Shown: positions 1,067 through 23,922 of the stretch, piece after piece
Position numbering within the stretch: position 1 is the stretch's first letter
Layout: each line of letters opens with the position of its first letter
The notes under the pieces: generated by a model
What the model was told of the DNA's origin: nothing
The model's input: only the letters and a program-made list of their open reading frames with translations
Databases searched by the model: none
Origin: Escherichia phage vB_EcoM_DE17
Sequence record: OP595146.1
Length of the DNA: 64,000 nt
Direction: 5' to 3' (one strand)
Program-made: the position numbers and the translations under genes

Positions 1067-3433
1067 TTAATCGTAAATTGTAGTCCCTTCTGGAACACAC
1101 TTCACATCAAAGCCTAAGAACTTACTCACTTCGATGGGTGACACTTTATTCCAATCTAAATGAGAAAGCAAGAAGTTTTCTTGTTTTCTTTTTGAAAGGT
1201 AGTTTGTCACCTTGATGACCATACGGTCACCAGCTTTCTTAATTTTCTTGTACAGCTTTGTATCATTATCAAGACAGCTTTTTAAATCTTGCAACACACT
1301 AATAGTGTAAGTGTATGCAAAAGGTGCAGCAACGTATTGGATTTTACCAAACATTGCCTCTACAGCATCTTCATTACCTTCTAAGAAGATAGTTTTGTTT
1401 GTGTCTCGTGAATAGCAATAACCGCGAGAAATCTTCCTGTTATTGAACGTAAAGTTTCTGGCAATAATCCAACTGCTTGTAAGGTCTAGGACACCATTCA
1501 TATAGATACGTGTCATATACCTGTTATGATTAATCCAGTGAACATCAGTTAAGCTGTCGTTCAAGAGCTTCTCATCTACTTCAATCCAGTCTTCTGGTAT
1601 CTTTTTCCAATTTGCTTTTCGGAAAACATAGACTGTCTTTTCAATGACATTGGCAACTGACTTAGCTACATCTTCTGGAGATGAGCAAAAACATTCACCA
1701 TCAACTGTGTCGCCTACTGCCTTAATATAAAGCTGAGGCTCTTCAATCGTATCTAAGTCTTCTGACACCTCTTTGTATGAAGCTACGCCTTCTGCTGGAA
1801 CAGCTTTCCAAAGTTTTACAACACCTCTTACAGCTTCTTTACGCTGATAATGGTGTTCCTTATCAGACATCTTCACAATCTTTAACAAGCTTTTATCAAG
1901 TTTGTGAAGATTGATTAAATCATCTAGCTCTTCCTCATTAGAGAATACAAAGACGATACCATTGTATCTGTGAAACAGACTTGACTCACTGGCATAGTCT
2001 CGACATGCACCACGCAGAATCTGATTGCGTCCTACAGTCTTCTCAGTACCATTTTTATTGCGACGGTCATTTATAACAAACAAAAACTGTTCAATTTGAC
2101 TTTTACGCATTGCGCCAAAGATATTGAACATACTTGCCTCTTGAGTGTAGGAAAGCGCTGTTGCACGAATCTTACTTTCTAAAGAGTTGAACTTAACATA
2201 AGCAACTGGATTATAAAGATAATCTACTTTAGGGATATTGTTCCCGTTCCTATCAACCTTAATATTGCCTTTACCGTCACGTTCGTAAATGACTGAGCCG
2301 TCTTCTGCGTAGATAATTCCACGACGAATGTTTAGTAATTCTTCTTCCAGAGAATCAAGCTTAACACCACCCCACTCTAGCTTTGGACACACAGCATTAA
2401 ACATCTCTCGTGAGTTCAAGCGTAACTCAGCATAAGCCTGTGCAGCATCCATGAGTGTAGGTTGGCTATTAACTTTCTTGATAACATCCTTTGTAATTGC
2501 TTCAGTTATCTTTTTGGTAGCCTCAATGATAACATTTTTTGTCGTATCATTCATCTGCAATGCTTCACGAGAAGCTGCAATAGCAACTGAGCCAATAGGC
2601 ATGTAGATGTTTACAAGGTCTACGCTCCTGCGGAAAAATTCTGGCAATACTTTGAAGAAATCATCACCAAGTAATGCTTCCATATTAACAGGGTAGGCAA
2701 TGTTACCCATCACCACATTAAACTCTGTCCTGTTACCACTAGAACGCCAGCTTTGTTTGTGAATCATGGCATCATAAACACCTTCTTCACGGGCAATGAC
2801 ATTCATATCTGCTAATACATCGTCATACTCGATATTACTTTCTGGTTTTACAGCAAAGTATGAGTATACGTTACCAGCTTCTTCAAAGAACTTTGAGATG
2901 CGGTGGTCAGCAACTGCTACACGTACAGCTAAACCATTAGGCTCTTTTGTTGGGTTGGTGGTCAGTTTAGTTACTTGAGGAATGCCATTCTCAAGGTAAA
3001 CAGAGTACTTATTAACCACACCATCAACATAGCTAGACACTGTGAATGACTGAGCAATTGCAAATGGGGATTTTGAGCCGATACCCATTGCACCAATGTA
3101 GTCATTAGAGTCATTCTTCGTAGAAGCCCCGTAGTTTAGGTACAAACTCATAACTTTATCATGAGTCAATCCAGTTCCAAAATCACGGACTTCAAAGTAA
3201 GGCTCAAAACGAGTAGGTAAATGCACATGGAACGGGATATTCTCTTTTCCAGCTTCTTTCTGAGCATCTACTGCGTTACATGACAGTTCACGAATCACTG
3301 CCCTTTCTTTAAAGGTATATACACCAGAACTCAAAAGGCTGAACATTTCAGGTGTCATTGTAATCTGTGCTTGAGACGTCTCTAAAGAAGTTGAACTCTT
3401 AATCACTTCTGCGTGGTCATTTACCATGCGCAT
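1067..3433 (-). CDS. rIIA: rIIA protein (GHKL/HATPase-like N-terminus)
   Basis: 788-aa ORF. N-terminal ATPase-like motifs: RELSCNAVDA, RDFGTGL, GAMGIGSKS. Size and position upstream of rIIB fit the T4-type rII pair. Confidence 0.8.
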   Translation of the reverse strand: MRMVNDHAEVIKSSTSLETSQAQITMTPEMFSLLSSGVYTFKERAVIRELSCNAVDAQKEAGKENIPFHVHLPTRFEPYFEVRDFGTGLTHDKVMSLYLNYGASTKNDSNDYIGAMGIGSKSPFAIAQSFTVSSYVDGVVNKYSVYLENGIPQVTKLTTNPTKEPNGLAVRVAVADHRISKFFEEAGNVYSYFAVKPESNIEYDDVLADMNVIAREEGVYDAMIHKQSWRSSGNRTEFNVVMGNIAYPVNMEALLGDDFFKVLPEFFRRSVDLVNIYMPIGSVAIAASREALQMNDTTKNVIIEATKKITEAITKDVIKKVNSQPTLMDAAQAYAELRLNSREMFNAVCPKLEWGGVKLDSLEEELLNIRRGIIYAEDGSVIYERDGKGNIKVDRNGNNIPKVDYLYNPVAYVKFNSLESKIRATALSYTQEASMFNIFGAMRKSQIEQFLFVINDRRNKNGTEKTVGRNQILRGACRDYASESSLFHRYNGIVFVFSNEEELDDLINLHKLDKSLLKIVKMSDKEHHYQRKEAVRGVVKLWKAVPAEGVASYKEVSEDLDTIEEPQLYIKAVGDTVDGECFCSSPEDVAKSVANVIEKTVYVFRKANWKKIPEDWIEVDEKLLNDSLTDVHWINHNRYMTRIYMNGVLDLTSSWIIARNFTFNNRKISRGYCYSRDTNKTIFLEGNEDAVEAMFGKIQYVAAPFAYTYTISVLQDLKSCLDNDTKLYKKIKKAGDRMVIKVTNYLSKRKQENFLLSHLDWNKVSPIEVSKFLGFDVKCVPEGTTIYD

Positions 3434-3461
3434 AATACTTTCCTCTTAGTTTACTGTTAAA

Positions 3462-3638
3462 TTACTTATTAAACATTTTACCAGAACCACCACACATAGG
3501 ACAGCAACCTGCTCTTGTATAGCCTTCTCCATTACAGTAGTCACATTTTTTGTGTTCTGCAAAGTACTTACAAAGAAGATAAACAAGGACTGCTACACCA
3601 CCAAGTGACAGTAAAATTTCTACCCAATATGCTTGCAT
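3462..3638 (-). CDS. small membrane protein with DnaJ-type zinc finger (58 aa, below ORF-track cutoff)
   Basis: Own translation: MQAYWVEILLSLGGVAVLVYLLCKYFAEHKKCDYCNGEGYTRAGCCPMCGGSGKMFNK. It has an N-terminal TM helix and two CxxCxGxG repeats. It fills the gap between rIIA and the upstream ORF. Confidence 0.55.
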   Translation of the reverse strand: MQAYWVEILLSLGGVAVLVYLLCKYFAEHKKCDYCNGEGYTRAGCCPMCGGSGKMFNK

Positions 3639-3955
3639 GACTCACCTCTCATATTTTTGTAAAGGATAAAGCTTCTGTCATGGACGACACTTGTAGACAC
3701 TGCAAAGTTACTTTCAAGCATCTGTTTGTTTGGATTGTAGAAGCTCTCTTTAAACTCGTCAAGTGCAAATTGGTGATTGTCTGGAAGACCTTTTACACAC
3801 ACCTTTATTGTGATTGCTGCTGCAATCTTCCCAGTCAGTTCTTCTTTAGCTGCTACTAAGATTTTGTTGAGGAACTTATGACCATTTTCAGGCTTCTTGA
3901 TGTTCTCCCAACGCTCTTCTAAGACAATATTGATGTTCATCTCTTTGATTTTCAT
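3620..3955 (-). CDS. hypothetical protein
   Basis: ORF track 3620..3967. I prefer the ATG at 3955 (MKIKEMNINIV...), preceded by GGTGA. The track start is a TTG. Confidence 0.55.
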   Translation of the reverse strand: MKIKEMNINIVLEERWENIKKPENGHKFLNKILVAAKEELTGKIAAAITIKVCVKGLPDNHQFALDEFKESFYNPNKQMLESNFAVSTSVVHDRSFILYKNMRGESCKHIG

Positions 3956-3960
3956 AATTT

Positions 3961-4305
3961 TCACCAAGTCCAGTTAACGAGTATGCCATCGAAACCTTTT
4001 ACTAAAGGTACACCCTCATGTTCATAAAATTCAGGATTAACTTCGAATCCACGATTTTCAATATACTCTATCATGTATTTCATTACAAAGCTAATCTCTT
4101 CGTAGTCATCTGGGTCTCTGCCAAAGAACTGTTCTATGACAAACATACCCTCTTTTGTAGCAAATTGGCAGTGGTGATTGTAGATACCTTCACAAAACTT
4201 TTCAAACTTTTCTTTACCGAGAACTTCAAGGATGTCTGTATAGGCAACTTGTAAGTATTTCGGTTGTACAGGTTTCTTATTAAACCATATGGAAAGGTTG
4301 TCCAT
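3961..4305 (-). CDS. hypothetical protein
   Basis: 114-aa ORF with GGAGA RBS (TTTCTGGAGAATGCTATG), directly after the terminator downstream of the NAMPT-like gene. Confidence 0.6.
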   Translation of the reverse strand: MDNLSIWFNKKPVQPKYLQVAYTDILEVLGKEKFEKFCEGIYNHHCQFATKEGMFVIEQFFGRDPDDYEEISFVMKYMIEYIENRGFEVNPEFYEHEGVPLVKGFDGILVNWTW

Positions 4306-4321
4306 AGCATTCTCCAGAAAT

Positions 4322-4345
4322 TAAAAAGGCTCCCGTAGGAGCCTC
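4322..4345 (-). terminator. rho-independent terminator after the NAMPT-like gene
   Basis: Minus strand: GAGGCTCC-TACG-GGAGCCTTTTTAA. GC stem, tetraloop and U-run. Confidence 0.8.
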
Positions 4346-4358
4346 TTATCATATACTT

Positions 4359-6140
4359 TTAAAGCTGCTTGTCAATATTATTTCGAATATCACCAAGAGT
4401 TGTGTAGCCGAACTGCTCAGAGTCGCTAAAGACTAAACGTAAAGCACAAGCTGGATGTTCAAGTGCATCTGCAAAGCTCTGGAATCCATAGCCATCTACA
4501 GCTTTCAGATTCTCACCATCCCACATAGGGGCTACACCACCAAAAGCAGACTTCTTAACACCACTATCTGTTTTAGGGTCTTTTGCAAGCATAATCTCTT
4601 TACCACCAATTCTTGCAAGAGTTGCTTTGACAGCAAATGCAAAGGTGTCACGAGTCATGTACTGGTAAGTGTAAGAACCTACACCAAACACTACGTTAGA
4701 GCTTGCAAAACCCATTTCATACAAACGCTTAAGGATTTCGTTTGCGCGTTCCAACGTGATAGAGTCACCATAAATAAGTCCGATATGCTCATCCAGTACT
4801 TTAAAACCTTTAGAGTTGATAGTTCCTCCAAAGATGTTATACAGTGTCTTGATAGCTCCATCAATCTCCGCTACAGGACGTGTTACAACGTTTGCAGAAC
4901 CAACCATATAAGCATTTTTCAACAGCACTGTATCAGCAACTTCAAAGTCTTCTCTGTCAACAACCATTTCGTAACCTTCTGACAGTAGCCATCCAGCAAT
5001 ACCATAATTGATGTTTTCAAGCTTCATGTTCAGAACAGCATTCAGCATTGTGTCGCTGGCTTCCAGCTTACTTAGGTGTTCGTAATAAGCCTTTTTAGCA
5101 CACTCTAAATGGATTGCTTTGTATCCTGTGACAATATGTACAGGGTCTCCAGAATCAGGACGAATTACCAGTTTGCCATCACGTTCCATAATCTCTTTAC
5201 GGAGTTCTGGCAATATGACTGATACAGTTCTCCAGAAGTTATAAGTATCTGAAACAACACTTGCAATACCAGTTGGGTAAGTTTTTGTTAAGAAACGACG
5301 GAAGGTTTGTAACTCACCTTTAAAGCGTCTTTCTTCTTCAATCAACTCGTTACCACCTTCCCAAGCAATGTTTGCACACATTACAGAATGTTCAGTGGCT
5401 GGTACAGAGCTACCAATATCAGAGATTGGGTAGGACTGTCCATAGATGCGTTTAGCTGTATACACAGCAGGGAAGCTATCAGTCCCTTTAAAGCTGGTTA
5501 AGTGACCTACAGCGTTAAATGCGTCATCAGTAAAGCCAGACATACCACGCATAGCAAAGTCATGGCACTGGTAAGGTAAATGTAAGTCGTTGTCACAAGT
5601 AAGGTCAGCCCACTTCTTACAGATACGTTTGTAGTGCAATGCAATAGTTGCAATGGTACAAGCCTTCCAAATCTCAGCAGAGAAAGCATCTTCCAGATAC
5701 CCCGCTACCCAATGGAAACCTGAAACAGTGTTCTGGAAAACAATCATTGGTACACGCATAGGGACAACTGTACCTTCTTCTACAGCGTAGACTTCAACTG
5801 GTAAATAACCTAAGTCGTGGAGTGCTTCCCAATGTTCTCGACCAATAGCATCTTTACCCAGAACACCATTCATGACTTCTAAGATTTCGTCAATTGCTTC
5901 TTTTTTGTCACGTTCAAAGAACGTAGCATTCCAATGGTCTATCAGGTAATCTTTAACAAAACGTTGAATACCAAAAGCAACTACACCATCAATTGCTAAG
6001 GGGCTGTTAAACCATTTGTCACTACGTGGTGTCAGGTTGAACATCAAGTACTCTGTTGCGCTAGGATACTGGTAGATGTGACCAGATTTGTAAGCATCTG
6101 CGTTTAAACCTGCTGGTACTGCATAAAGTGATTTAGTCAT
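4359..6140 (-). CDS. nadV: nicotinamide phosphoribosyltransferase-family protein (NadV/NAMPT-like; candidate Namat of NARP1)
   Basis: 593-aa ORF that I recognise as NAMPT/NAPRTase family (YAVPAGLNADAYKSGH..., SVPATEHSVM, GDSITLERA, FGVGSYTYQ). Adjacent to a Prs-like gene. Confidence 0.8.
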   Translation of the reverse strand: MTKSLYAVPAGLNADAYKSGHIYQYPSATEYLMFNLTPRSDKWFNSPLAIDGVVAFGIQRFVKDYLIDHWNATFFERDKKEAIDEILEVMNGVLGKDAIGREHWEALHDLGYLPVEVYAVEEGTVVPMRVPMIVFQNTVSGFHWVAGYLEDAFSAEIWKACTIATIALHYKRICKKWADLTCDNDLHLPYQCHDFAMRGMSGFTDDAFNAVGHLTSFKGTDSFPAVYTAKRIYGQSYPISDIGSSVPATEHSVMCANIAWEGGNELIEEERRFKGELQTFRRFLTKTYPTGIASVVSDTYNFWRTVSVILPELRKEIMERDGKLVIRPDSGDPVHIVTGYKAIHLECAKKAYYEHLSKLEASDTMLNAVLNMKLENINYGIAGWLLSEGYEMVVDREDFEVADTVLLKNAYMVGSANVVTRPVAEIDGAIKTLYNIFGGTINSKGFKVLDEHIGLIYGDSITLERANEILKRLYEMGFASSNVVFGVGSYTYQYMTRDTFAFAVKATLARIGGKEIMLAKDPKTDSGVKKSAFGGVAPMWDGENLKAVDGYGFQSFADALEHPACALRLVFSDSEQFGYTTLGDIRNNIDKQL

Positions 6141-6185
6141 CTTTTAATCTCTCTCAAAATGGGGCTTTTAAGCCCCTATAAACTT

Positions 6186-7067
6186 TCAATCAAGGTTTGC
6201 TACAGTAACTTGACTATAATGTGTTAAGCCACGGTCTTTAGCTTCGCCTAAAGAGTTTGTAGTGTAAATATGGTCGATACCATTGTCAAGAAGGTTTTCA
6301 ACATCTTTAGAGAAGATACCATGTGTTACATAAAGTTCCACACGTTTTGCACCTGCTTCACGAAGATGTTTCGCTGCTTCTATGAAGGTTCGACCACCAT
6401 CACAGATATCATCCAGAATCATAACGGTTTTATCTGTCAAATCAACATCATCAAGGATTCGCATACCAGTAATTTCACCAGTCTTAAGGTTACGCACTTT
6501 AGACATTGTGATGTATGGTTTATCCACCTCTTTAGCAGTCTCTGCAATCTTCTTAGCAGCACCTGCATCTGGGGCTACTAAGTAATCAATCAGTGGGTCA
6601 TTTGCATAGTGGACTGCAATTTCCTTTTGAGGAATACTCTGGAAGCAGTTAAACAGGTTATCTGGTACATAGCTGTGAGGGTCAACTGCACAGACTGCAC
6701 CAAATCCCATTGCATTTACCTGTTTAGCAAAAACCTTTAAAGCTGCTGCGTCACCTTTAAACATGTGACGGTCATAGCGTGCATTTGGTAAGTAGTAAAA
6801 GATGACAGTCTTTAAAGCATAATCATGAGGAATTAAATCATCAATTGCTTCTTTAGCAAGTGCCACAGCAAACAATGTATCCTTATCATAACCTTTTACA
6901 ATCATAATCACATTGTTGATGGATGATGCTGCATAAGCAGTGAAATCAACAAACTCTGGCGAAAAGTGTCCACCAATCTCACCAGAAGGAAATTGGATGA
7001 TGTTAAACTCTTCTTCATGAGTTCCTTTAGTTGGTGAATGAACTGTAACACGGATAGATGTTTTCAT
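6186..7067 (-). CDS. prs: ribose-phosphate pyrophosphokinase-family protein (Prs-like; candidate Adps of NARP1)
   Basis: PRTase-type motif VMILDDICDGGRT and overall Prs-like sequence. Start moved to the ATG at 7067 (MKTSIRV...) behind the RBS GAGAGAGAA. Confidence 0.75.
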   Translation of the reverse strand: MKTSIRVTVHSPTKGTHEEEFNIIQFPSGEIGGHFSPEFVDFTAYAASSINNVIMIVKGYDKDTLFAVALAKEAIDDLIPHDYALKTVIFYYLPNARYDRHMFKGDAAALKVFAKQVNAMGFGAVCAVDPHSYVPDNLFNCFQSIPQKEIAVHYANDPLIDYLVAPDAGAAKKIAETAKEVDKPYITMSKVRNLKTGEITGMRILDDVDLTDKTVMILDDICDGGRTFIEAAKHLREAGAKRVELYVTHGIFSKDVENLLDNGIDHIYTTNSLGEAKDRGLTHYSQVTVANLD

Positions 7068-7078
7068 AGTTTTCTCTC

Positions 7079-7357
7079 TCAATCAAAAGTTACGTTTGTT
7101 ACTGCCATTGCAGATTTGCATTTTGCAGGGTCTACAACGTGATAAAGTACACTACAGTTACCTGTGCTGTCTGGTACAGGTTTAACCCATTGTTGCTTGA
7201 CAGTTGGTTCGCCTAAGTCTTTGTAAGAACCATCTGTAAAGTTGTTTACCATCTCAAGTGCAATTGGCTCTGGAACATGACCACGTATCATGTACATTTC
7301 ACAGCCATTACCACCTTCACTGACTAATGGTAAAATCTCCCACTTTTCTTTAGCCAT
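7079..7357 (-). CDS. hypothetical protein
   Basis: 92-aa ORF. Its stop overlaps the region of the next gene's RBS. Same-strand tight packing. Confidence 0.55.
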   Translation of the reverse strand: MAKEKWEILPLVSEGGNGCEMYMIRGHVPEPIALEMVNNFTDGSYKDLGEPTVKQQWVKPVPDSTGNCSVLYHVVDPAKCKSAMAVTNVTFD

Positions 7358-7865
7358 TGTAAGTTGCCCTATAAACTATCTCGAACTTCAACAGGAGAGA
7401 TATTGCCAAATCTGTATAGTTGTTGTCAAGCACATCTGGCATATTATTTTTGATATATCTCTCTTGCTCTTCATAGGTCATCTTAGGGGTACTTAAAAGA
7501 CTATCTCCTTGCTTCTGGTTATCAGCTTTAGTCTGAATAAACCAGTTTGCACAGTGATGTTCGCCACCTTTTGTAACAGGTTTGTGGTGGCCTAATGTGA
7601 AGGATTGACTGCCTGTGTATCTGCAAAGTTTATTGAGTACTGTAATGGTGTTCTTCACAACAAAGCATTCATATAGGTTGTCTATGGTGTAGTGTGGGTA
7701 ATATCGAAATAATGCTCTTTCACGAGTACTCTCACGATTCCAGAGAATCATGTGGTTGGAGTTGGAAGGGTCGTATTGGTGGGAGTCAATGAACTCTTGA
7801 CGTTCCTCAAAACTGAGTCTTAACACTGACATTGCAGCAGAACGTTTCAGATTTGACAGATACAT
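7350..7865 (-). CDS. HNH endonuclease-domain protein
   Basis: Motif LGHHKPVTKGGEHHCANWFIQTKADNQKQG fits the HNH pattern (HH..P...GG....N....N). RBS GGAGATAATATATG. Confidence 0.6.
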   Translation of the reverse strand: MYLSNLKRSAAMSVLRLSFEERQEFIDSHQYDPSNSNHMILWNRESTRERALFRYYPHYTIDNLYECFVVKNTITVLNKLCRYTGSQSFTLGHHKPVTKGGEHHCANWFIQTKADNQKQGDSLLSTPKMTYEEQERYIKNNMPDVLDNNYTDLAISLLLKFEIVYRATYNG

Positions 7866-7873
7866 ATTATCTC

Positions 7874-7905
7874 CAAAATAAAAAGGGAACCTTTACAGTT
7901 CCCTT
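7874..7905 (-). terminator. rho-independent terminator
   Basis: Minus strand: AAGGGAAC-TGTAAAG-GTTCCCTTTTTATTTT. Confidence 0.8.
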
Positions 7906-7916
7906 ATAGTATCTGC

Positions 7917-8237
7917 TTACTGAGCTACTTTCAAGATTCTTGTGAATGGAATTTCACTTTCTTCCATTAACTCTTTAGTTTCTTTGGTAACTTTCACAAA
8001 GTTATCTAGGCAGATAATCTTCTTATCTTTCTTACTATAGGTTAATTTAACCTTTTCAATATCTTTCTCAGAGCTTTTCTCTTCATTGAAGAGTTTTACA
8101 GCCTCTTTGAATGGGAGATATGAGCCATCATTATCACTAATGAATCCTGTACCACAATAGTAGGAGTTATGTTCTCTAGCCATAAACTGGCACAGTAAGA
8201 AAATCTGTAATTTACGAGTGTTATAAACTTTGCTCAT
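7917..8237 (-). CDS. hypothetical protein
   Basis: 106-aa ORF followed by a terminator. Confidence 0.55.
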   Translation of the reverse strand: MSKVYNTRKLQIFLLCQFMAREHNSYYCGTGFISDNDGSYLPFKEAVKLFNEEKSSEKDIEKVKLTYSKKDKKIICLDNFVKVTKETKELMEESEIPFTRILKVAQ

Positions 8238-8239
8238 GA

Positions 8240-8506
8240 TTATTTAGCCTTCTTATTACGTTTACGGTTACGAGCTTTCTTAGCTGCTCGTTTAATAGCT
8301 GCTGCACCAGACGGACGGTGGGCTTGTTTCTTACCACCTTTGCCACGGCCTACATAGATGTAAGGTTGCTGTTCAATTTGGCTTGTAAGAACCTGTGCAA
8401 CCGCTGAAGCATCTACACCGACCTGCTTTCCAGTCATAGAAACAATGGCTGCTGCTTTTGCCAGTGCCTTCAAGAATCCAGCTTTCATATTACCTAAAAT
8501 TCCCAT
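8240..8506 (-). CDS. hypothetical protein with highly basic C-terminus
   Basis: Start placed at the ATG at 8506 (MGILGNMKAG...). C-terminus is KRAAKKARNRKRNKKAK. Confidence 0.5.
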   Translation of the reverse strand: MGILGNMKAGFLKALAKAAAIVSMTGKQVGVDASAVAQVLTSQIEQQPYIYVGRGKGGKKQAHRPSGAAAIKRAAKKARNRKRNKKAK

Positions 8507-8604
8507 TTTTAGTCTCTCTCTCATTAAAGTTTAATACAGAACTTATGAAGTTCTTCTTCAGTGATACCAATTGGAGTTATACCTTAGTCCATTTGCCAGA
8601 ATAA

Positions 8605-9090
8605 TCACTCTGCTCTCCACTGACAATCACCTTGCCACCCATACTCTTTTCTCCAGAGGTTTTGATTATCAGAACCACGATACGGTTTAACTGTTGGTTT
8701 AGATGAATCATACTTACCATCAATCACCACGTCAACATATTTCATCACATCTAGGTGAATTTTTTCGTGTAACTGAAAACCTGTCCAGAGCCAGATAGAC
8801 TTCTCTGGATAAACAGTTTTAATACGTTTGCATATGTTGGTAACCTCTTGAATATTTCTATCATCCAGAGGTTCTCCACCAAGTATTGACAACCCACTGA
8901 TGGCCTCATCACCCATTAAATTAATAATGCCGTAAAGGTTTGCATAAGTAAACTCTTTACCAGCATTAAACTTCCAAGACTCCCTGTTAAAGCAGCCTTC
9001 ACAGTGATGTTTACAGCCAGCTACGAAGAGGCTTACCCGAACCCCTTCACCATTAGCTGTGTCAAATGGTCGAATCTCCATGTAATTCAT
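8605..9090 (-). CDS. nrdG: anaerobic ribonucleotide reductase activating protein (radical SAM)
   Basis: CKHHCEGC (CxxxCxxC) radical-SAM cluster motif, about 160 aa, same operon as nrdD. Confidence 0.85.
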   Translation of the reverse strand: MNYMEIRPFDTANGEGVRVSLFVAGCKHHCEGCFNRESWKFNAGKEFTYANLYGIINLMGDEAISGLSILGGEPLDDRNIQEVTNICKRIKTVYPEKSIWLWTGFQLHEKIHLDVMKYVDVVIDGKYDSSKPTVKPYRGSDNQNLWRKEYGWQGDCQWRAE

Positions 9091-9099
9091 CTAGTTACC

Positions 9100-9399
9100 T
9101 CACCAATACATATAAGTGTTCTTAGCGGCTTTCTTTGGAGACTTGCTATCAATATCAAAATCTTCATCTAAGAAGGATGTCTTAGAAAGCTGCCTTATTT
9201 GTGTTCTTGTAAGACGTTTAGTGGCCTTCTTAATCTCTCTACAAGGCTGACTTGTAAAGTCATAAGAGCCACCTTTTCTGGACATCATATCAGAATGGAA
9301 GTAGACATCTAAAGCATTTTCTCTGTTACGTACCTCATTTCTCCACTCATAAAGTCCATGAACGTTCTTTAAACCTTTTCTTCGAATTGTTTTACTCAT
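9100..9399 (-). CDS. hypothetical protein
   Basis: 99-aa ORF with a 4-nt overlap to the upstream gene. Confidence 0.5.
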   Translation of the reverse strand: MSKTIRRKGLKNVHGLYEWRNEVRNRENALDVYFHSDMMSRKGGSYDFTSQPCREIKKATKRLTRTQIRQLSKTSFLDEDFDIDSKSPKKAAKNTYMYW

Positions 9400-10141: not shown

Positions 10142-12286
10142 TTACATAGAGACTCTATCACGAATCTCAGCGATTTTTGCATCGTTCATTCGGGATTCAC
10201 CTTTAATCTTAGTCCATCCAAGATACCCACACACCCTGTTAATCACAGAGATATCATGTGAATGGCAAACCTCACATTCTTCAACATCAGCCTTTGGTCT
10301 GTTACCACAATGTTCACAGATTGCTAAGTCAAAGTTAAGCCCCTGATAGAAACCTTTCAACATCCCTCTGGTAATACAACTTTTAAGTGCTGTTAAGTTT
10401 TCTGGATTAGCTACCCTTACATACTGGATTCTGCCACCTCTACAGATATGGAAGAATGGCTCTTCTAAGTCCTGCTTCTCAAATGGTGAGATGTCTGCTG
10501 CAACATTCATATGAAAACTATTTGTGAAGTATTCCTTGTCAGAAACACCTTTAATAACGCCAAACATATCTCTGAACTGTTTTAACTGAGTTCCGCAAAG
10601 TGATTCTGCTGGAGTACCATAGACGGCATATAAGAAGCCATCTTCATTTTTAAACTCTTCAGTTTTCATGTTGATGTATGCCAGAACATCGTATGCAAAA
10701 CTACAGCTTCCAACTTCATGAAGTCGTTTACCTTCAGCAAGAACAGATAGCTCATCAAGCGCGGTAACCCCAAAAGAAGCTGTGAAGGACTTCACGATAT
10801 CCCAGCCAACCTTGTCAGTAGGTTTCTTATTCCCTTTGTACAGACCACCTTGTGTGAATGCAAGAGGGTTAGAACTTGCTGGCATATTAGCAATCATTTC
10901 GTAACGTTTCTTGTGGAAGCTGCGAATCATCTCTAGGTACTTATCAAGCTCTTTCCAGAAATCTAAGCCATTCTCTTTAGAATACTGGTAAATCATTGGT
11001 AAGTTCAAAGATACAGCACCAATGTTAGCACGACCAACATAGAACTCTTCCCCATTCTCATTAAAATATGGAGATAAGAAGGCTCTGCAACCCATCGGTG
11101 AAATTACCTTGCCAGAACGCTCAAAAGCTTCTGCTACAGCACCATGACCAGATACGCTTAAGAAATCTGGATACATCGCTTTAGAGCAACACTCAATAGC
11201 TTTACTGTACAGGTGTCCTTGACAGATATTTTCATCATGTCTCTTCTGGTCATAGATATAAACCAGCTTAGGAAATACAACAGGTTTTTTACTCTTACCT
11301 TGTCCATTCATACGAACATCTAGGAGAGTACTTGCAATCATGTATTGTAGTCGGTTGTCTTCATTAGACATGTCTGAGTCAAGCAAACCAAATGTTAAAG
11401 TTGTGAATGCAAAATCACCACGGCTGCAAGGTACAGTATTTAGTTTCATCTCTAGTGACTGGAAGCCTTGAGTTAATTCAATCTGTAGCTGCTCCATGAC
11501 ATAGTTATGGTAATGTTCTTTAGGAATACCGTAAGATGCTGCTTTCTCAGCATGATAGCGTAGAGACTTCTTAGCATACGGTACAAGTGCCTTATCAATC
11601 TCTGCTAAAGTAAATCCACCAAATTGCTGTGCAGTTGCTGAAAGAACTACATCACCGATAACTTGTAAGGCTGACAGTACAGACTTCGGTTCACAGTATT
11701 CGATGCCAGACATTTCAAAGCCACCTTTCAGTACTTTACCAATGTCGAACAGGCAACAGTTAATCCCACCAAAAATTAGGTCTCTTAAGTCATGGATGTA
11801 GATAAACCCTTTTTCAATGGCTTCGAGTTCCTCTGGTGTTAAATGGTACTGTTTAAAGATTTCTTTAGTCAGATAACCACGAATAATTGAACCTTTTGTA
11901 GAAATTAAACTACTGTCAAAGTTAGCATTTTCACGGTCACCTAAGAAGAGTGTGTCTCTGGTCTTTTGGTAAAGCTCATCCCAATTTTGAGCAACCTCTT
12001 TACGGTAATTTCTGTATGTTGAGTAAGACTCATAAATCTCGTGATTGACTTCTGCCAAAGCACCCTCAACAATGCTGTGGATATCATTTACCGAGATAAG
12101 CAAATTACCCTGCTTAGTGGACTTTACCAGAATCCTCATAAATGCTGACTCAAGAGCTTGGGTAACATCTGGTGGCAGTTCTTTATATCCAACCCTGTTA
12201 GCTGACTTTGTCACTGCCGCTAAAACTTTTTTGATATCAGGTTCTTCAAGTGAGCCATTCTTTTTAATAATCTGTACTTTGTTCAT
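10142..12286 (-). CDS. nrdD: anaerobic ribonucleoside-triphosphate reductase (class III)
   Basis: 714 aa. C-terminal glycyl-radical motif RVCGYLG and Zn-site cysteines CEHCGN...CEVCHSHD. Confidence 0.9.
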   Translation of the reverse strand: MNKVQIIKKNGSLEEPDIKKVLAAVTKSANRVGYKELPPDVTQALESAFMRILVKSTKQGNLLISVNDIHSIVEGALAEVNHEIYESYSTYRNYRKEVAQNWDELYQKTRDTLFLGDRENANFDSSLISTKGSIIRGYLTKEIFKQYHLTPEELEAIEKGFIYIHDLRDLIFGGINCCLFDIGKVLKGGFEMSGIEYCEPKSVLSALQVIGDVVLSATAQQFGGFTLAEIDKALVPYAKKSLRYHAEKAASYGIPKEHYHNYVMEQLQIELTQGFQSLEMKLNTVPCSRGDFAFTTLTFGLLDSDMSNEDNRLQYMIASTLLDVRMNGQGKSKKPVVFPKLVYIYDQKRHDENICQGHLYSKAIECCSKAMYPDFLSVSGHGAVAEAFERSGKVISPMGCRAFLSPYFNENGEEFYVGRANIGAVSLNLPMIYQYSKENGLDFWKELDKYLEMIRSFHKKRYEMIANMPASSNPLAFTQGGLYKGNKKPTDKVGWDIVKSFTASFGVTALDELSVLAEGKRLHEVGSCSFAYDVLAYINMKTEEFKNEDGFLYAVYGTPAESLCGTQLKQFRDMFGVIKGVSDKEYFTNSFHMNVAADISPFEKQDLEEPFFHICRGGRIQYVRVANPENLTALKSCITRGMLKGFYQGLNFDLAICEHCGNRPKADVEECEVCHSHDISVINRVCGYLGWTKIKGESRMNDAKIAEIRDRVSM

Positions 12287-16772: not shown

Positions 16773-17088
16773 GGTATTTCTCCAAGTTTCTTTTTAGATA
16801 TAACCAACCATAGTCAGTTCTTTCTACACCCATGAAGAGTGGAGCCATTACAACTTTACCAAAAGTATTCCTGTGTTGACAGATTTCAAAAGAATACTCT
16901 TTCTCAATATCAATCCCGTATTTGTACAGAACTGCTTTTAAAACTTGTTCATTATCCAGAAGTGTATCTGGAGTCTCACCATACTTCTCAAGTAACGGGT
17001 CATTCATAAACACCGTCATAGAGATATTGTAGTTTGAGAAGTGGCTCTTCTGAGCCACACCTTCTTTATTAATGTTCTGTGAATCCAT
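16765..17088 (-). CDS. hypothetical protein
   Basis: Start placed at the ATG at 17088 (MDSQNINKEG...). Confidence 0.5.
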   Translation of the reverse strand: MDSQNINKEGVAQKSHFSNYNISMTVFMNDPLLEKYGETPDTLLDNEQVLKAVLYKYGIDIEKEYSFEICQHRNTFGKVVMAPLFMGVERTDYGWLYLKRNLEKYRV

Positions 17089-17824
17089 TATAACCAACCC
17101 CTTTTAACCAGCACTTCAGGTTATTAGCATCATAATTCAGTTTCGGGTATGAGGTTACATGGAACTGCTCACCATCATAGTAGACAATATCTGCAATCCA
17201 TAGTCCATTCTCTTTACAGAAATCTTTATCTGCTTTAGAGGTAATTGGATTAACTTCTACAAAACCATCTACACCCAAATCCTTTAAGCTACATACAATA
17301 CCTTTGCAGATAACGCATGTGTCAGATACTACCACAAAAAGTTCTTGGCTTTCAAGTTCTACAATGTATTCACCAAGCTGAACTTTAGGGAGATTAGATT
17401 GCTTCATAATCTTCCCATCGGCTGCACGAACAATTGCATACCATTCTTTACCATCAACTACTGACATTCTGATGATACACTCTTGACCAGTACGCTTCTC
17501 AATATCTGCAAGACGCTTTAAAGCTTCTTCATAGTCGTCTGTGTACTTCAGGTCATTATTATGGCAAACAGCTTTCATAGCACCGTTATGGTCATGTTGT
17601 GATAGATAAATCAGACCGTCAAGAACATATTGCAAATCTGCCTGAGCATCCAGTGTCTCAATGGGGTCTTTCTCTTCAATTGCTTTTACAAGCTCTTTTG
17701 CTTCTTCAAGCATACATAGAGATTGAGATTTCAAAGACTCCCAATACTCATCACTGTAAGGTTGCTTTTGAGTGTTTCCACAACGAAGATTCCAGTTTTT
17801 TACTGATTCTCTTGAGTTAAACAT
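17069..17824 (-). CDS. putative all-alpha NTP pyrophosphohydrolase (MazG-like) domain protein
   Basis: N-terminal acidic helix pattern LEEAKELVKAIEEKDPIETLDAQADLQYVLDG resembles MazG/dimeric-dUTPase-type folds. RBS AGGAG. Weak call. Confidence 0.35.
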   Translation of the reverse strand: MFNSRESVKNWNLRCGNTQKQPYSDEYWESLKSQSLCMLEEAKELVKAIEEKDPIETLDAQADLQYVLDGLIYLSQHDHNGAMKAVCHNNDLKYTDDYEEALKRLADIEKRTGQECIIRMSVVDGKEWYAIVRAADGKIMKQSNLPKVQLGEYIVELESQELFVVVSDTCVICKGIVCSLKDLGVDGFVEVNPITSKADKDFCKENGLWIADIVYYDGEQFHVTSYPKLNYDANNLKCWLKGVGYNGFTEH

Positions 17825-18069: not shown

Positions 18070-18567
18070 TCAAGCACAGTTTGCTTTCATTACCTTATGG
18101 ATTCTTTTTTCAGCATCTTCATAAGTTTCTTTAGTAATAAACTTAATTGCTGCAATATTGGCATTGTAGAAGAGTCTGAGCTTAGAGTCAATCCTTTTTG
18201 TCATTACATCGAATTTATGTTGAAGGTTTGCTTCACCATAAACTAGACCACCTTTTGTGTAGTAGGTTTGAATAATGTAAAAGTCAAAAAATTCTTTTCC
18301 AAAGCTCTCAATATCTTTTTTGATATACTCAGAAGAAGTCTCATAAGTCATCCAATCACTTTCCTTAGTGACTACCTTCTTCCGAGTCTTGCCAGCAACT
18401 TTTCTTTTGGTCACACTATTAAGCTGTTTCTTTCCGATATAGTATTGTCCGGTTTTCTTACAGTATACTAAATAGACAAAGCCAAAATGTTTAGTGGGGT
18501 CAACTTCCCCACACAAAGATACCCAATGACCGTAGGTAGGACAATTGCCAAATCCTTTAATCTTCAT
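18070..18567 (-). CDS. GIY-YIG-like nuclease domain protein
   Basis: FGFVYLVYCKKTGQYYIGKK resembles the GIY...YIG motif pair; 165 aa. Confidence 0.45.
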   Translation of the reverse strand: MKIKGFGNCPTYGHWVSLCGEVDPTKHFGFVYLVYCKKTGQYYIGKKQLNSVTKRKVAGKTRKKVVTKESDWMTYETSSEYIKKDIESFGKEFFDFYIIQTYYTKGGLVYGEANLQHKFDVMTKRIDSKLRLFYNANIAAIKFITKETYEDAEKRIHKVMKANCA

Positions 18568-23178: not shown

Positions 23179-23922
23179 TTAAATTTTCAGGATAGCTCTT
23201 AGCTTACTTTCAAGGTCTGCAAGAGTACCATTATTATGGATAATGTCACGCGCATATTTGGTAGAAATTCCATTTTCTGAAACATGTGATGAAACCTTGT
23301 CCACATTGTCTCTTTTTACTTCAATAATCTGGTGTGCAAATCTACTCAGCCACTCAGCTTCAGAGTCAAACCTTAAGTCACTGATTAAAACAACACCCTC
23401 TTGATTCATAAGTGAACAAGATTCAAAGAAGCGAGCCATTCGTTTTTCAAGGTCTTTAGCCCAGAATTTGTCACCCATAACTTTACGGATTACTTCAGTG
23501 CCCCAAATCTGTTGAATTTGTCTTGATGAGAATTTATACTTCTTGCTAAATCCCAGACGTGTCAATAGAGTTGGCTTAGCAACCTTCTTAAGTTCCATGA
23601 TTAATCGTCCGGTTAACTCCGACATAAGCTTAAAGTCCATATGATAACGTTCATCTCTGAAGGTGAACTCCATAGCTTCCGTAACTTTTAACATAAGTTC
23701 AGAGTATGATAAATCAAAAACCTGTGGAGTCTCTTTAGTTTCACCGTACAGGTCATTCCATGTCAAGTCAAATATCTTTGACGCAGATAGCTTAAGATTG
23801 TCTGCATAGGCCATTACTGCAACATTGTAGCCATACTCATCCTCTAAGATGTTCTTCACAATAGAACATGAGGTATCTTTTCCAGAACGTGCCTTTCCAG
23901 TAAATGCGATAATATTGCTCAT
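23179..23922 (-). CDS. deoxynucleoside monophosphate kinase (T4 gp1-like)
   Basis: P-loop FTGKARSGKDT closely resembles the T4 Dnk N-terminus (GVKRSGKDT); about 240 aa. Confidence 0.6.
   Translation of the reverse strand: MSNIIAFTGKARSGKDTSCSIVKNILEDEYGYNVAVMAYADNLKLSASKIFDLTWNDLYGETKETPQVFDLSYSELMLKVTEAMEFTFRDERYHMDFKLMSELTGRLIMELKKVAKPTLLTRLGFSKKYKFSSRQIQQIWGTEVIRKVMGDKFWAKDLEKRMARFFESCSLMNQEGVVLISDLRFDSEAEWLSRFAHQIIEVKRDNVDKVSSHVSENGISTKYARDIIHNNGTLADLESKLRAILKI

Follow-up and report, generated by a model that had tools for sequence, protein, structure and literature searches.

We analyzed a 64,000-nt stretch (hereafter, the window) of the genome of Escherichia phage vB_EcoM_DE17 (OP595146.1) and focused on two adjacent reverse-strand genes that very probably encode the NAD+ reconstitution pathway NARP1. 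The upstream gene, adps (6186–7067, −), starts with an ATG at 7067 and encodes a 293-aa PRPS-like protein, the predicted ADP-ribose pyrophosphokinase and first NARP1 enzyme. The gene namat (4359–6140, −) lies directly downstream on the same strand and encodes a 593-aa NAMPT-like protein, the predicted nicotinamide ADP-ribose transferase and second enzyme. Exactly 45 nt separate them (6141–6185, −), a spacer that holds a hairpin and the namat ribosome-binding site. An initial annotation of this DNA had described a Prs-family gene of 293 aa upstream of a NAMPT/NadV-family gene of 593 aa on one strand, and open reading frames (ORFs), Pfam, and PHROGs agree with that description: Adps matched Pribosyltran/Pribosyl_synth and the ribose-phosphate pyrophosphokinase PHROG (4.6e-97), and Namat matched NAPRTase/NAMPT_N and the nicotinamide phosphoribosyltransferase PHROG (1.1e-201). 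An alternative in-frame start, the TTG at 7082, would lengthen Adps to 298 aa; in phage Bas63, the gene is annotated from the ATG equivalent to 7067. Megablast of positions 4200–7300 against 50,697 phage records returned 257 matches, the best at 96.8% identity, and assigned the window to Felixounavirus. Nearly all of these are Felix O1-like phages with Escherichia, Salmonella, Shigella, or Citrobacter as hosts, and all matching relatives carry the GenBank labels ribose-phosphate pyrophosphokinase and nicotinamide/nicotinate phosphoribosyltransferase.

We interpret the pair, with high confidence, as the core NARP1 operon (Adps and Namat) of Felixounavirus. In the proposed mechanism, an NAD+-depleting defense (SIR2-HerA, DSR1/2, type I Thoeris, SEFIR, or a similar system) would cleave NAD+, releasing ADP-ribose (ADPR) along with nicotinamide. 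Adps would then move the β,γ-pyrophosphate of ATP onto ADPR at its distal ribose, yielding ADPR pyrophosphate (ADPR-PP), and Namat would join nicotinamide to ADPR-PP to give NAD+ directly, with no nicotinamide mononucleotide (NMN) intermediate and no need for an NMN adenylyltransferase (NMNAT). The initial annotation had placed the report of such a pathway in 2024, correctly; it is that of Osterman et al., who defined NARP1 by deleting genes 79–80 of the BASEL phage Bas63 (JohannRWettstein). The deletion reduced plating ~20-fold on cells carrying SIR2-HerA and lowered NAD+, ADPR-PP (m/z 720.010) was seen only with wild-type Bas63 when the defense was present, and the Bas63 ortholog rescued NAD+ independently of host PncC and NadR. 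With the enzymes of SPbetaL1, Adps converted ADPR and ATP to ADPR-PP, and Namat converted ADPR-PP and nicotinamide to NAD+ (bioRxiv 10.1101/2024.02.11.579819).

Bas63 (MZ501086) is itself a Felixounavirus, and its locus, which runs in the reverse orientation, has the same gene order, gene lengths (bas63_0079, 882 nt; bas63_0080, 1782 nt), and 45-nt gap with a hairpin as the window. The neighborhoods also correspond, with NrdG, several small genes, and 0077/0078 upstream, and three small genes and rIIA downstream. Adps is 78% identical to Bas63_0079 across 293/293 aa without gaps (and 100% identical to Adps of phage KhF2), and Namat is 97% identical to Bas63_0080 across 593/593 aa, with the same insertion domain and selectivity-clamp residues; the N-terminal ~170 aa of Adps are where the window departs from Bas63. 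Among Adps-clade genes, 97% have a Namat homolog within 10 genes (bioRxiv 10.1101/2024.02.11.579819), and here namat is the very next gene. The NARP1 reading is supported because orthology and synteny with Bas63 are joined by conserved enzyme-defining residues and no NMNAT was found in the window or in Bas63. The phenotype is borrowed from Bas63 within the same genus and the chemistry from the SPbetaL1 and ICP1 homologs. The window pair, including its Adps N-terminal allele, would thus be expected to act as these homologs do, and its counter-defense phenotype is likewise predicted from orthology.

The initial annotation had kept an older reading as its alternative, namely, classical salvage. 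In that case, the first product would be a true PRPP synthetase, and the second would make NMN as a NadV/Nampt; host NadR or PncC would convert this NMN to NAD+, boosting NAD+ or nucleotide supply for replication. The GenBank labels of all relatives, Prs and nicotinamide phosphoribosyltransferase, accord with it, and Adps does pass a Prs-family profile. This was, however, only the broad TIGR01251 subfamily cut-off; Adps fell far below every NCBIfam Prs equivalog cut-off (best, NF002095, 103.7 vs. 296; another, 91 vs. 297 bits). In BLASTP, it scored 116 bits against ICP1 Adps and 100 against SPbetaL1 Adps, vs. 61 against E. coli Prs. By these profile and pairwise comparisons, the PRPS-like protein belongs to the Adps clade and not to housekeeping Prs. 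The profile comparison with bona fide Prs that the initial annotation had proposed thus came out on the side of NARP1, with higher scores against validated Adps.

Individual residues of Adps gave the same picture. The PRTase motif VMILDDICDGGRT noted in the initial annotation is present at aa 215–227 (6387–6425, −), where alignment and residue mapping identify it as the pyrophosphate (PP) loop. The loop reads DDICDGGRT; its DDICDG form is that of ICP1 Adps and not the canonical DDMIDTGGT of E. coli Prs, and D219, D220, and D223 correspond to ICP1 D212, D213, and D216. The structure paper on ICP1 Adps names F18, R87, F92, H121, D161, K185, D212, D213, and D216 along with the PP loop, and reports that K185A causes loss of function (PMC13586617). 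By alignment, F18, R87, H121, D161, and K185 map to F26, R97, H131, D167, and K190 of the window protein, placing the predicted catalytic lysine, Lys190, at 6498–6500 (−). All mapped sites are identical between the window and Bas63 alleles. In addition, the C-terminus of Adps stops ~21 residues short of that of E. coli Prs (from alignment only). Adps homologs lack the C-terminal α11–α12 regulatory/filament region of PRPS (PMC13586617), and the window protein appears to have lost it as well.

For Namat, general profiles were less discriminating. It cleared the NCBIfam NF006629 equivalog cut-off (468.7 vs. 405), a point on the side of classical salvage, along with the report that SPbetaL1 Namat converts PRPP to NMN in vitro at about half the activity seen for human NAMPT (PMC12774641). 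Evidently, however, Namat and Nampt are not told apart by NF006629. The published distinction is a selectivity clamp made of a helix, GS-X-φ-X-φ-X-φ-TRD, in which X is aromatic, and a variable loop carrying Arg, Lys, or Tyr in third position, where this residue provides, or precedes, the adenine-stacking residue; Bas63 is the Lys-type example (PMC12774641). Aligning the window, Bas63, ICP1, and SPbetaL1 proteins, we located both elements of this adenine clamp in the window protein: the helix GSYTYQYMTRD (aa 488–498; 4647–4679, −), which fits the Namat-specific consensus, and the loop S40-D41-K42-W43 (6012–6023, −), with Lys third and Trp as the predicted stacking residue, identical to Bas63. 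In the same alignment, every SPbetaL1 Namat contact of nicotinamide/NAD+ was identical or conservatively replaced (D15, Y17, F195, R198, D221, A248, H251, R327, D329, G458, and D459; further G488, S489, Y490, Y494, T496, R497, and D498), and the catalytic core F195, R198, D221, H251, R327, and D329 is retained. The best PDB sequence match was SPbetaL1 Namat (9w5w/9w5x, 2e-127), followed by Haemophilus ducreyi NadV (HdNadV; 2e-104) and human NAMPT (~1e-40). We also modeled the protein with AlphaFold2 from 32 homologs (pLDDT 92.9); the best PDB fold match of the model was the Namat crystal structure, with a target-normalised TM of 0.95. Both the clamp motif and the fact that the Namat structure is matched more closely than HdNadV favor Namat.

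We then considered whether the phage could complete NAD+ by way of NMN. In tblastn, the queries NadR and NadD of E. coli (KVP40 NatV was not among them) produced chance matches only (E ≥ 0.8), both in the window and in the full genome of Bas63. Pfam scans of 20 other ORFs revealed no NMNAT or cytidylyltransferase-type enzyme; they showed a dNMP kinase, a MazG-like domain, a GIY-YIG endonuclease, a DNA ligase, DHFR, thymidylate synthase, and unknowns. The Bas63 annotation lists no NMN adenylyltransferase either. The initial annotation had seen no NMNAT beside the pair, and the observation now covers the window from end to end and the entire genome of Bas63. These data bear on a NARP2-type arrangement, in which Nampt would make NMN from PRPP and a phage NMNAT encoded elsewhere would complete NAD+. 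NARP2 does exist in other phages, such as KVP40 (bioRxiv 10.1101/2024.02.11.579819), and ~23 kb of the phage genome lies outside the window. Nonetheless, besides the negative searches for NadR/NadD-like sequences and cytidylyltransferase-type domains, the NARP2 Nampt homologs form a separate clade in phages without Adps according to the NARP1 paper, and here adps adjoins; we consider this arrangement barely credible. NadR-like genes do occur in other phage groups (773 records), where they form the separate NARP3 pathway.

Canonical Prs with NadV/Nampt, and NARP2 with its Nampt and Nmnat in KVP40, draw on the same superfamilies as NARP1, the PRPS fold and the type II phosphoribosyltransferase fold. 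NARP1 differs from both in that the acceptor is ADPR rather than ribose-5-phosphate, the Namat donor is ADPR-PP rather than PRPP, and the product is NAD+ directly. Given the failed Prs cut-offs, the non-canonical PP loop of Adps, and the clamp in Namat, the classical alternative did not hold up. It retains a very slim probability, mainly because Namat homologs keep some PRPP-dependent NMN synthesis in vitro. The initial proposal of a NARP1-type Adps–Namat module stands, because Adps is closer to validated Adps than to E. coli Prs and no NMNAT was found in the window or in Bas63; the 78% and 97% identities to the Bas63 proteins and the conservation of the clamp and of nearly all Adps residues are in line with it.

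Several observations weigh against the NARP1 assignment. The enzymes assayed in vitro, from SPbetaL1 and ICP1, are only 32–46% identical to the window pair. The residual PRPP-to-NMN activity of Namat homologs in vitro (PMC12774641) leaves room for some classical salvage. One adenine contact of ICP1 Adps, Phe92, aligns with Met102 (Phe103 is adjacent), as it does in Bas63. Over aa 1–180, Adps shares ~58–75% protein identity with its Bas63 counterpart and so differs from the allele that was tested genetically. Finally, the absence of an NMNAT from the ~23 kb beyond the window is extrapolated from Bas63.

Both biochemically characterized systems share the defining features with the window. SPbetaL1 NARP1 has its two genes side by side and in the window's order, and its Namat contacts and GS-X-φ-X-φ-X-φ-TRD helix recur in the window. 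It differs in sequence (45–46% identity for Namat, 32% for Adps), in the length of its Namat (491 aa, lacking both insertions described below), in its clamp loop (Arg40 vs. Lys42-Trp43), and in its Adps PP loop (DDLSSFGGT vs. DDICDGGRT). ICP1 NrsA/NrsB, equivalent to Adps/Namat, has the DDICDG loop, the catalytic Lys, and the acceptor-binding Asp, His, and Arg in common with the window, and both Adps proteins, the window's by alignment, lack the PRPS C-terminal helices. The Adps proteins are 33% identical and the Namat proteins 46%, the ICP1 Namat has no insertion, and ICP1 Phe92 corresponds to Met102/Phe103.

The NARP1 operon is already known, and the finding is not new because the same phage genus is its type case. 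NARP1 lets a phage evade many NAD+-depleting defenses at once, and recognizing it therefore matters for host-range prediction, as in the selection of Felix O1-like phages for therapy. Several hundred near-identical copies in GenBank are still labeled Prs and NadV, so that the practical value lies in correcting the annotation. The operon itself adds no new biology; the uncharacterized lineage-specific features are the Adps N-terminal allele and the Namat insertion domain, both cheaply testable.

The first of these features is a divergent 5′ part of adps (6558–7057, −), covering the N-terminal domain (aa ~4–170). Across 3400–9100, DNA identity to Bas63 is 87–98%, apart from indels at ~8558–8600 and bins at the alignment edges; over the ~500 nt from 7057 to 6558, it falls to 58–79% (100-nt bins). 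The divergent segment begins no more than ~10 nt from where adps starts (7067), forming a sharp mosaic boundary, and the C-terminal catalytic half of the protein returns to 91–98% identity in 60-aa blocks. Within the segment, pS is 0.72, dS ~2.4 (saturated), and dN 0.23, giving a dN/dS of ~0.09; for the remainder of adps, dS is 0.42 and dN 0.036. Using tblastn, we distinguished two Adps allele classes in Felixounavirus: ~154 records are at least 90% identical to the window, and ~91, including Bas63, are at 60–80%. The window thus carries the commoner allele in the genus, which is not the experimentally tested one. Positive selection on the Adps N-terminus was considered and rejected on account of the saturated dS and low dN/dS. 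By its substitution pattern, the segment is an allele of old standing that recombination has exchanged and purifying selection has kept, rather than a recent adaptive change, since dN/dS is ~0.09 with saturated dS. A separate ~157-nt indel relative to Bas63 lies at 8558–8600, just downstream of an NrdG-like gene (8605–9090).

The second feature accounts for the size of Namat. The initial annotation had remarked that the NAMPT-like protein is ~100 aa longer than bacterial NadV, and this is correct: it has 593 aa, compared with 488–496 aa for the ICP1 and SPbetaL1 Namat proteins and bacterial homologs. The extra length consists of two insertions relative to SPbetaL1/ICP1 Namat and bacterial NadV, a smaller one at aa ~257–275 (5316–5372, −) and an ~85-aa domain at aa ~340–424 (4869–5123, −). 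The long insertion recurs in proteins of 580–610 aa down to ~42–46% identity, including those of Yersinia, Pectobacterium, and Erwinia Ounavirinae. In the full-length model, it is predicted with confidence to fold as a small α/β unit. Structure comparisons detected no fold relative of this domain, and a search with the insertion alone (90 aa) against a 5.8-billion-protein database returned a single fragment. In the Namat structure paper (PMC12774641), the word "insertion" is absent and "inserted" is used for plasmid cloning alone; the 85-residue domain, common to Ounavirinae, has apparently gone undiscussed. The insertion is compatible with ordinary NARP1 function because Bas63 Namat carries it as well. 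This loop also holds insertions in other Namat clades (P0097, P0098), but unrelated ones.

These features raise the question of whether the chemistry is NARP1 with modified specificity, such that the Adps allele, the Namat insertion, or both would alter substrate range or regulation relative to Bas63. A modified ADPR might be accepted, for example, or a host inhibitor resisted. The Adps N-terminal domain, the source of the ADPR adenine contacts, is indeed a distinct allele, and the confidently folded ~85-aa insertion is kept across Ounavirinae down to ~46% identity. Yet the two Adps alleles do not differ at any of the mapped ligand contacts, the dN/dS of ~0.09 with saturated dS describes an old allele under purifying selection and not recent adaptation, and Bas63, which behaves as a standard NARP1 phage, has the same Namat insertion. 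We therefore give modified specificity, including either of these examples, a slim chance. There is a small chance that the two lineage-specific features add something beyond core NARP1 in a wider sense; they might serve to regulate the pathway, to shield it from a counter-measure of the host, or to shift the range of acceptors, for example to modified ADPR species.

We compared the core NARP1 operon with extended versions of the pathway. NARP1-AP (Adps–Adpp–Namat; bioRxiv 10.64898/2026.01.28.702374) shares the Adps/Namat core and adds a Macro-domain ADPR-1″-phosphate phosphatase, and RyDEP-associated NARP1 (bioRxiv 10.64898/2026.05.28.727677) shares the core and adds a RyR-domain glycosidase. 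Among the Pfam matches of seven flanking ORFs in the window, we found neither a Macro-domain Adpp nor a RyR domain, and PHROGs returned only families of unknown function. As far as these profiles tell, the window locus is a bare two-gene NARP1. By the logic of the NARP1-AP paper (bioRxiv 10.64898/2026.01.28.702374), a bare NARP1 would not be expected to counter aRES-type depletion, and this phage, in which no Adpp was found, is predicted to be sensitive to aRES.

The operon is closed by an intrinsic terminator. The initial annotation had placed it at 4322–4345; its presence holds, and a consensus scan for a 10-pair stem followed by a T run puts it at 4324–4347 (−), an offset of 2 nt. This GC-rich element follows the namat stop codon and folds with a minimum free energy (MFE) of −17.6 kcal/mol (z = −3.2 vs. 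shuffles). The terminator scan detected a second terminator upstream of the operon at 7883–7905 (−), and the two (7905–7883 and 4347–4324) enclose four genes: those for a 171-aa HNH-like protein and a 92-aa protein, adps, and namat. Both terminators have a common layout (7883–7934, −, and 4324–4375, −), in which a sigma70-like −35/−10 match is followed by the hairpin and T run, then by TGGAGA and the next ATG. This layout suggests leaky terminators with coupled re-initiation.

The 171-aa protein (7350–7865, −), encoded two genes upstream of adps, belongs to phrog_3500 and shows the HNH-like pattern GHHKPVTKGGEHH...NW...DNQKQGD. At the equivalent position, Erwinia phage M7 encodes gp081, to which it is 52% identical, and it is also found in phi92/rV5-like phages, ~70 kb from their Adps, for example, in phage alia. 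The 92-aa protein (7079–7357) is restricted to Felixounavirus, Mooglevirus, and SUSP1-like phages, with no homolog detectable at the equivalent position in M7. We rejected the two as obligate NARP1 partners, as neither tracks NARP1 outside Ounavirinae; their linkage to adps–namat is conserved gene order only.

The 45-nt spacer with a hairpin that the initial annotation had reported between adps and namat was confirmed; the hairpin, GGGGCTTAAAAGCCCC, lies at 6161–6176 (−) and has an MFE of −14.3 kcal/mol (z = −2.9 vs. shuffled controls). In Bas63, one loop base of it is changed, without covariation, and it is missing from Erwinia phage M7 and SUSP1. We therefore rejected it as a conserved RNA element, and NARP1 does not require it. 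The place of the spacer between adps and namat is taken in SUSP1, Moogle, and some Felixounaviruses by a gene for an HNH homing endonuclease (3391–3882 in the SUSP1 locus, L012; 4680–5171 in the Moogle locus, L013), and the hairpin is absent there. The window spacer is thus an empty homing site, with the hairpin in place of the HNH gene.

A related difference was seen farther upstream. Gene order and length suggest that the 714-aa ORF at 10142–12286 (−) is NrdD, and it is uninterrupted. In the Bas63 annotation, NrdD consists of two joined segments that flank a gene for a homing endonuclease (bas63_0067/0068), and the window NrdD appears to be without that intron or endonuclease. Elsewhere, a dNMP kinase is encoded at 23179–23922 (−; Pfam DNMK, 1.4e-22); the phage deoxynucleotide kinase R1DNK triggers the NAD+-depleting Kongming system, which NARP1 neutralized (PMC12774641). 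The replication module contains a SegE-type GIY-YIG endonuclease (18070–18567, −; 2.3e-27) and a protein with a MazG-like PRA-PH domain (17069–17824, −; 8.8e-06).

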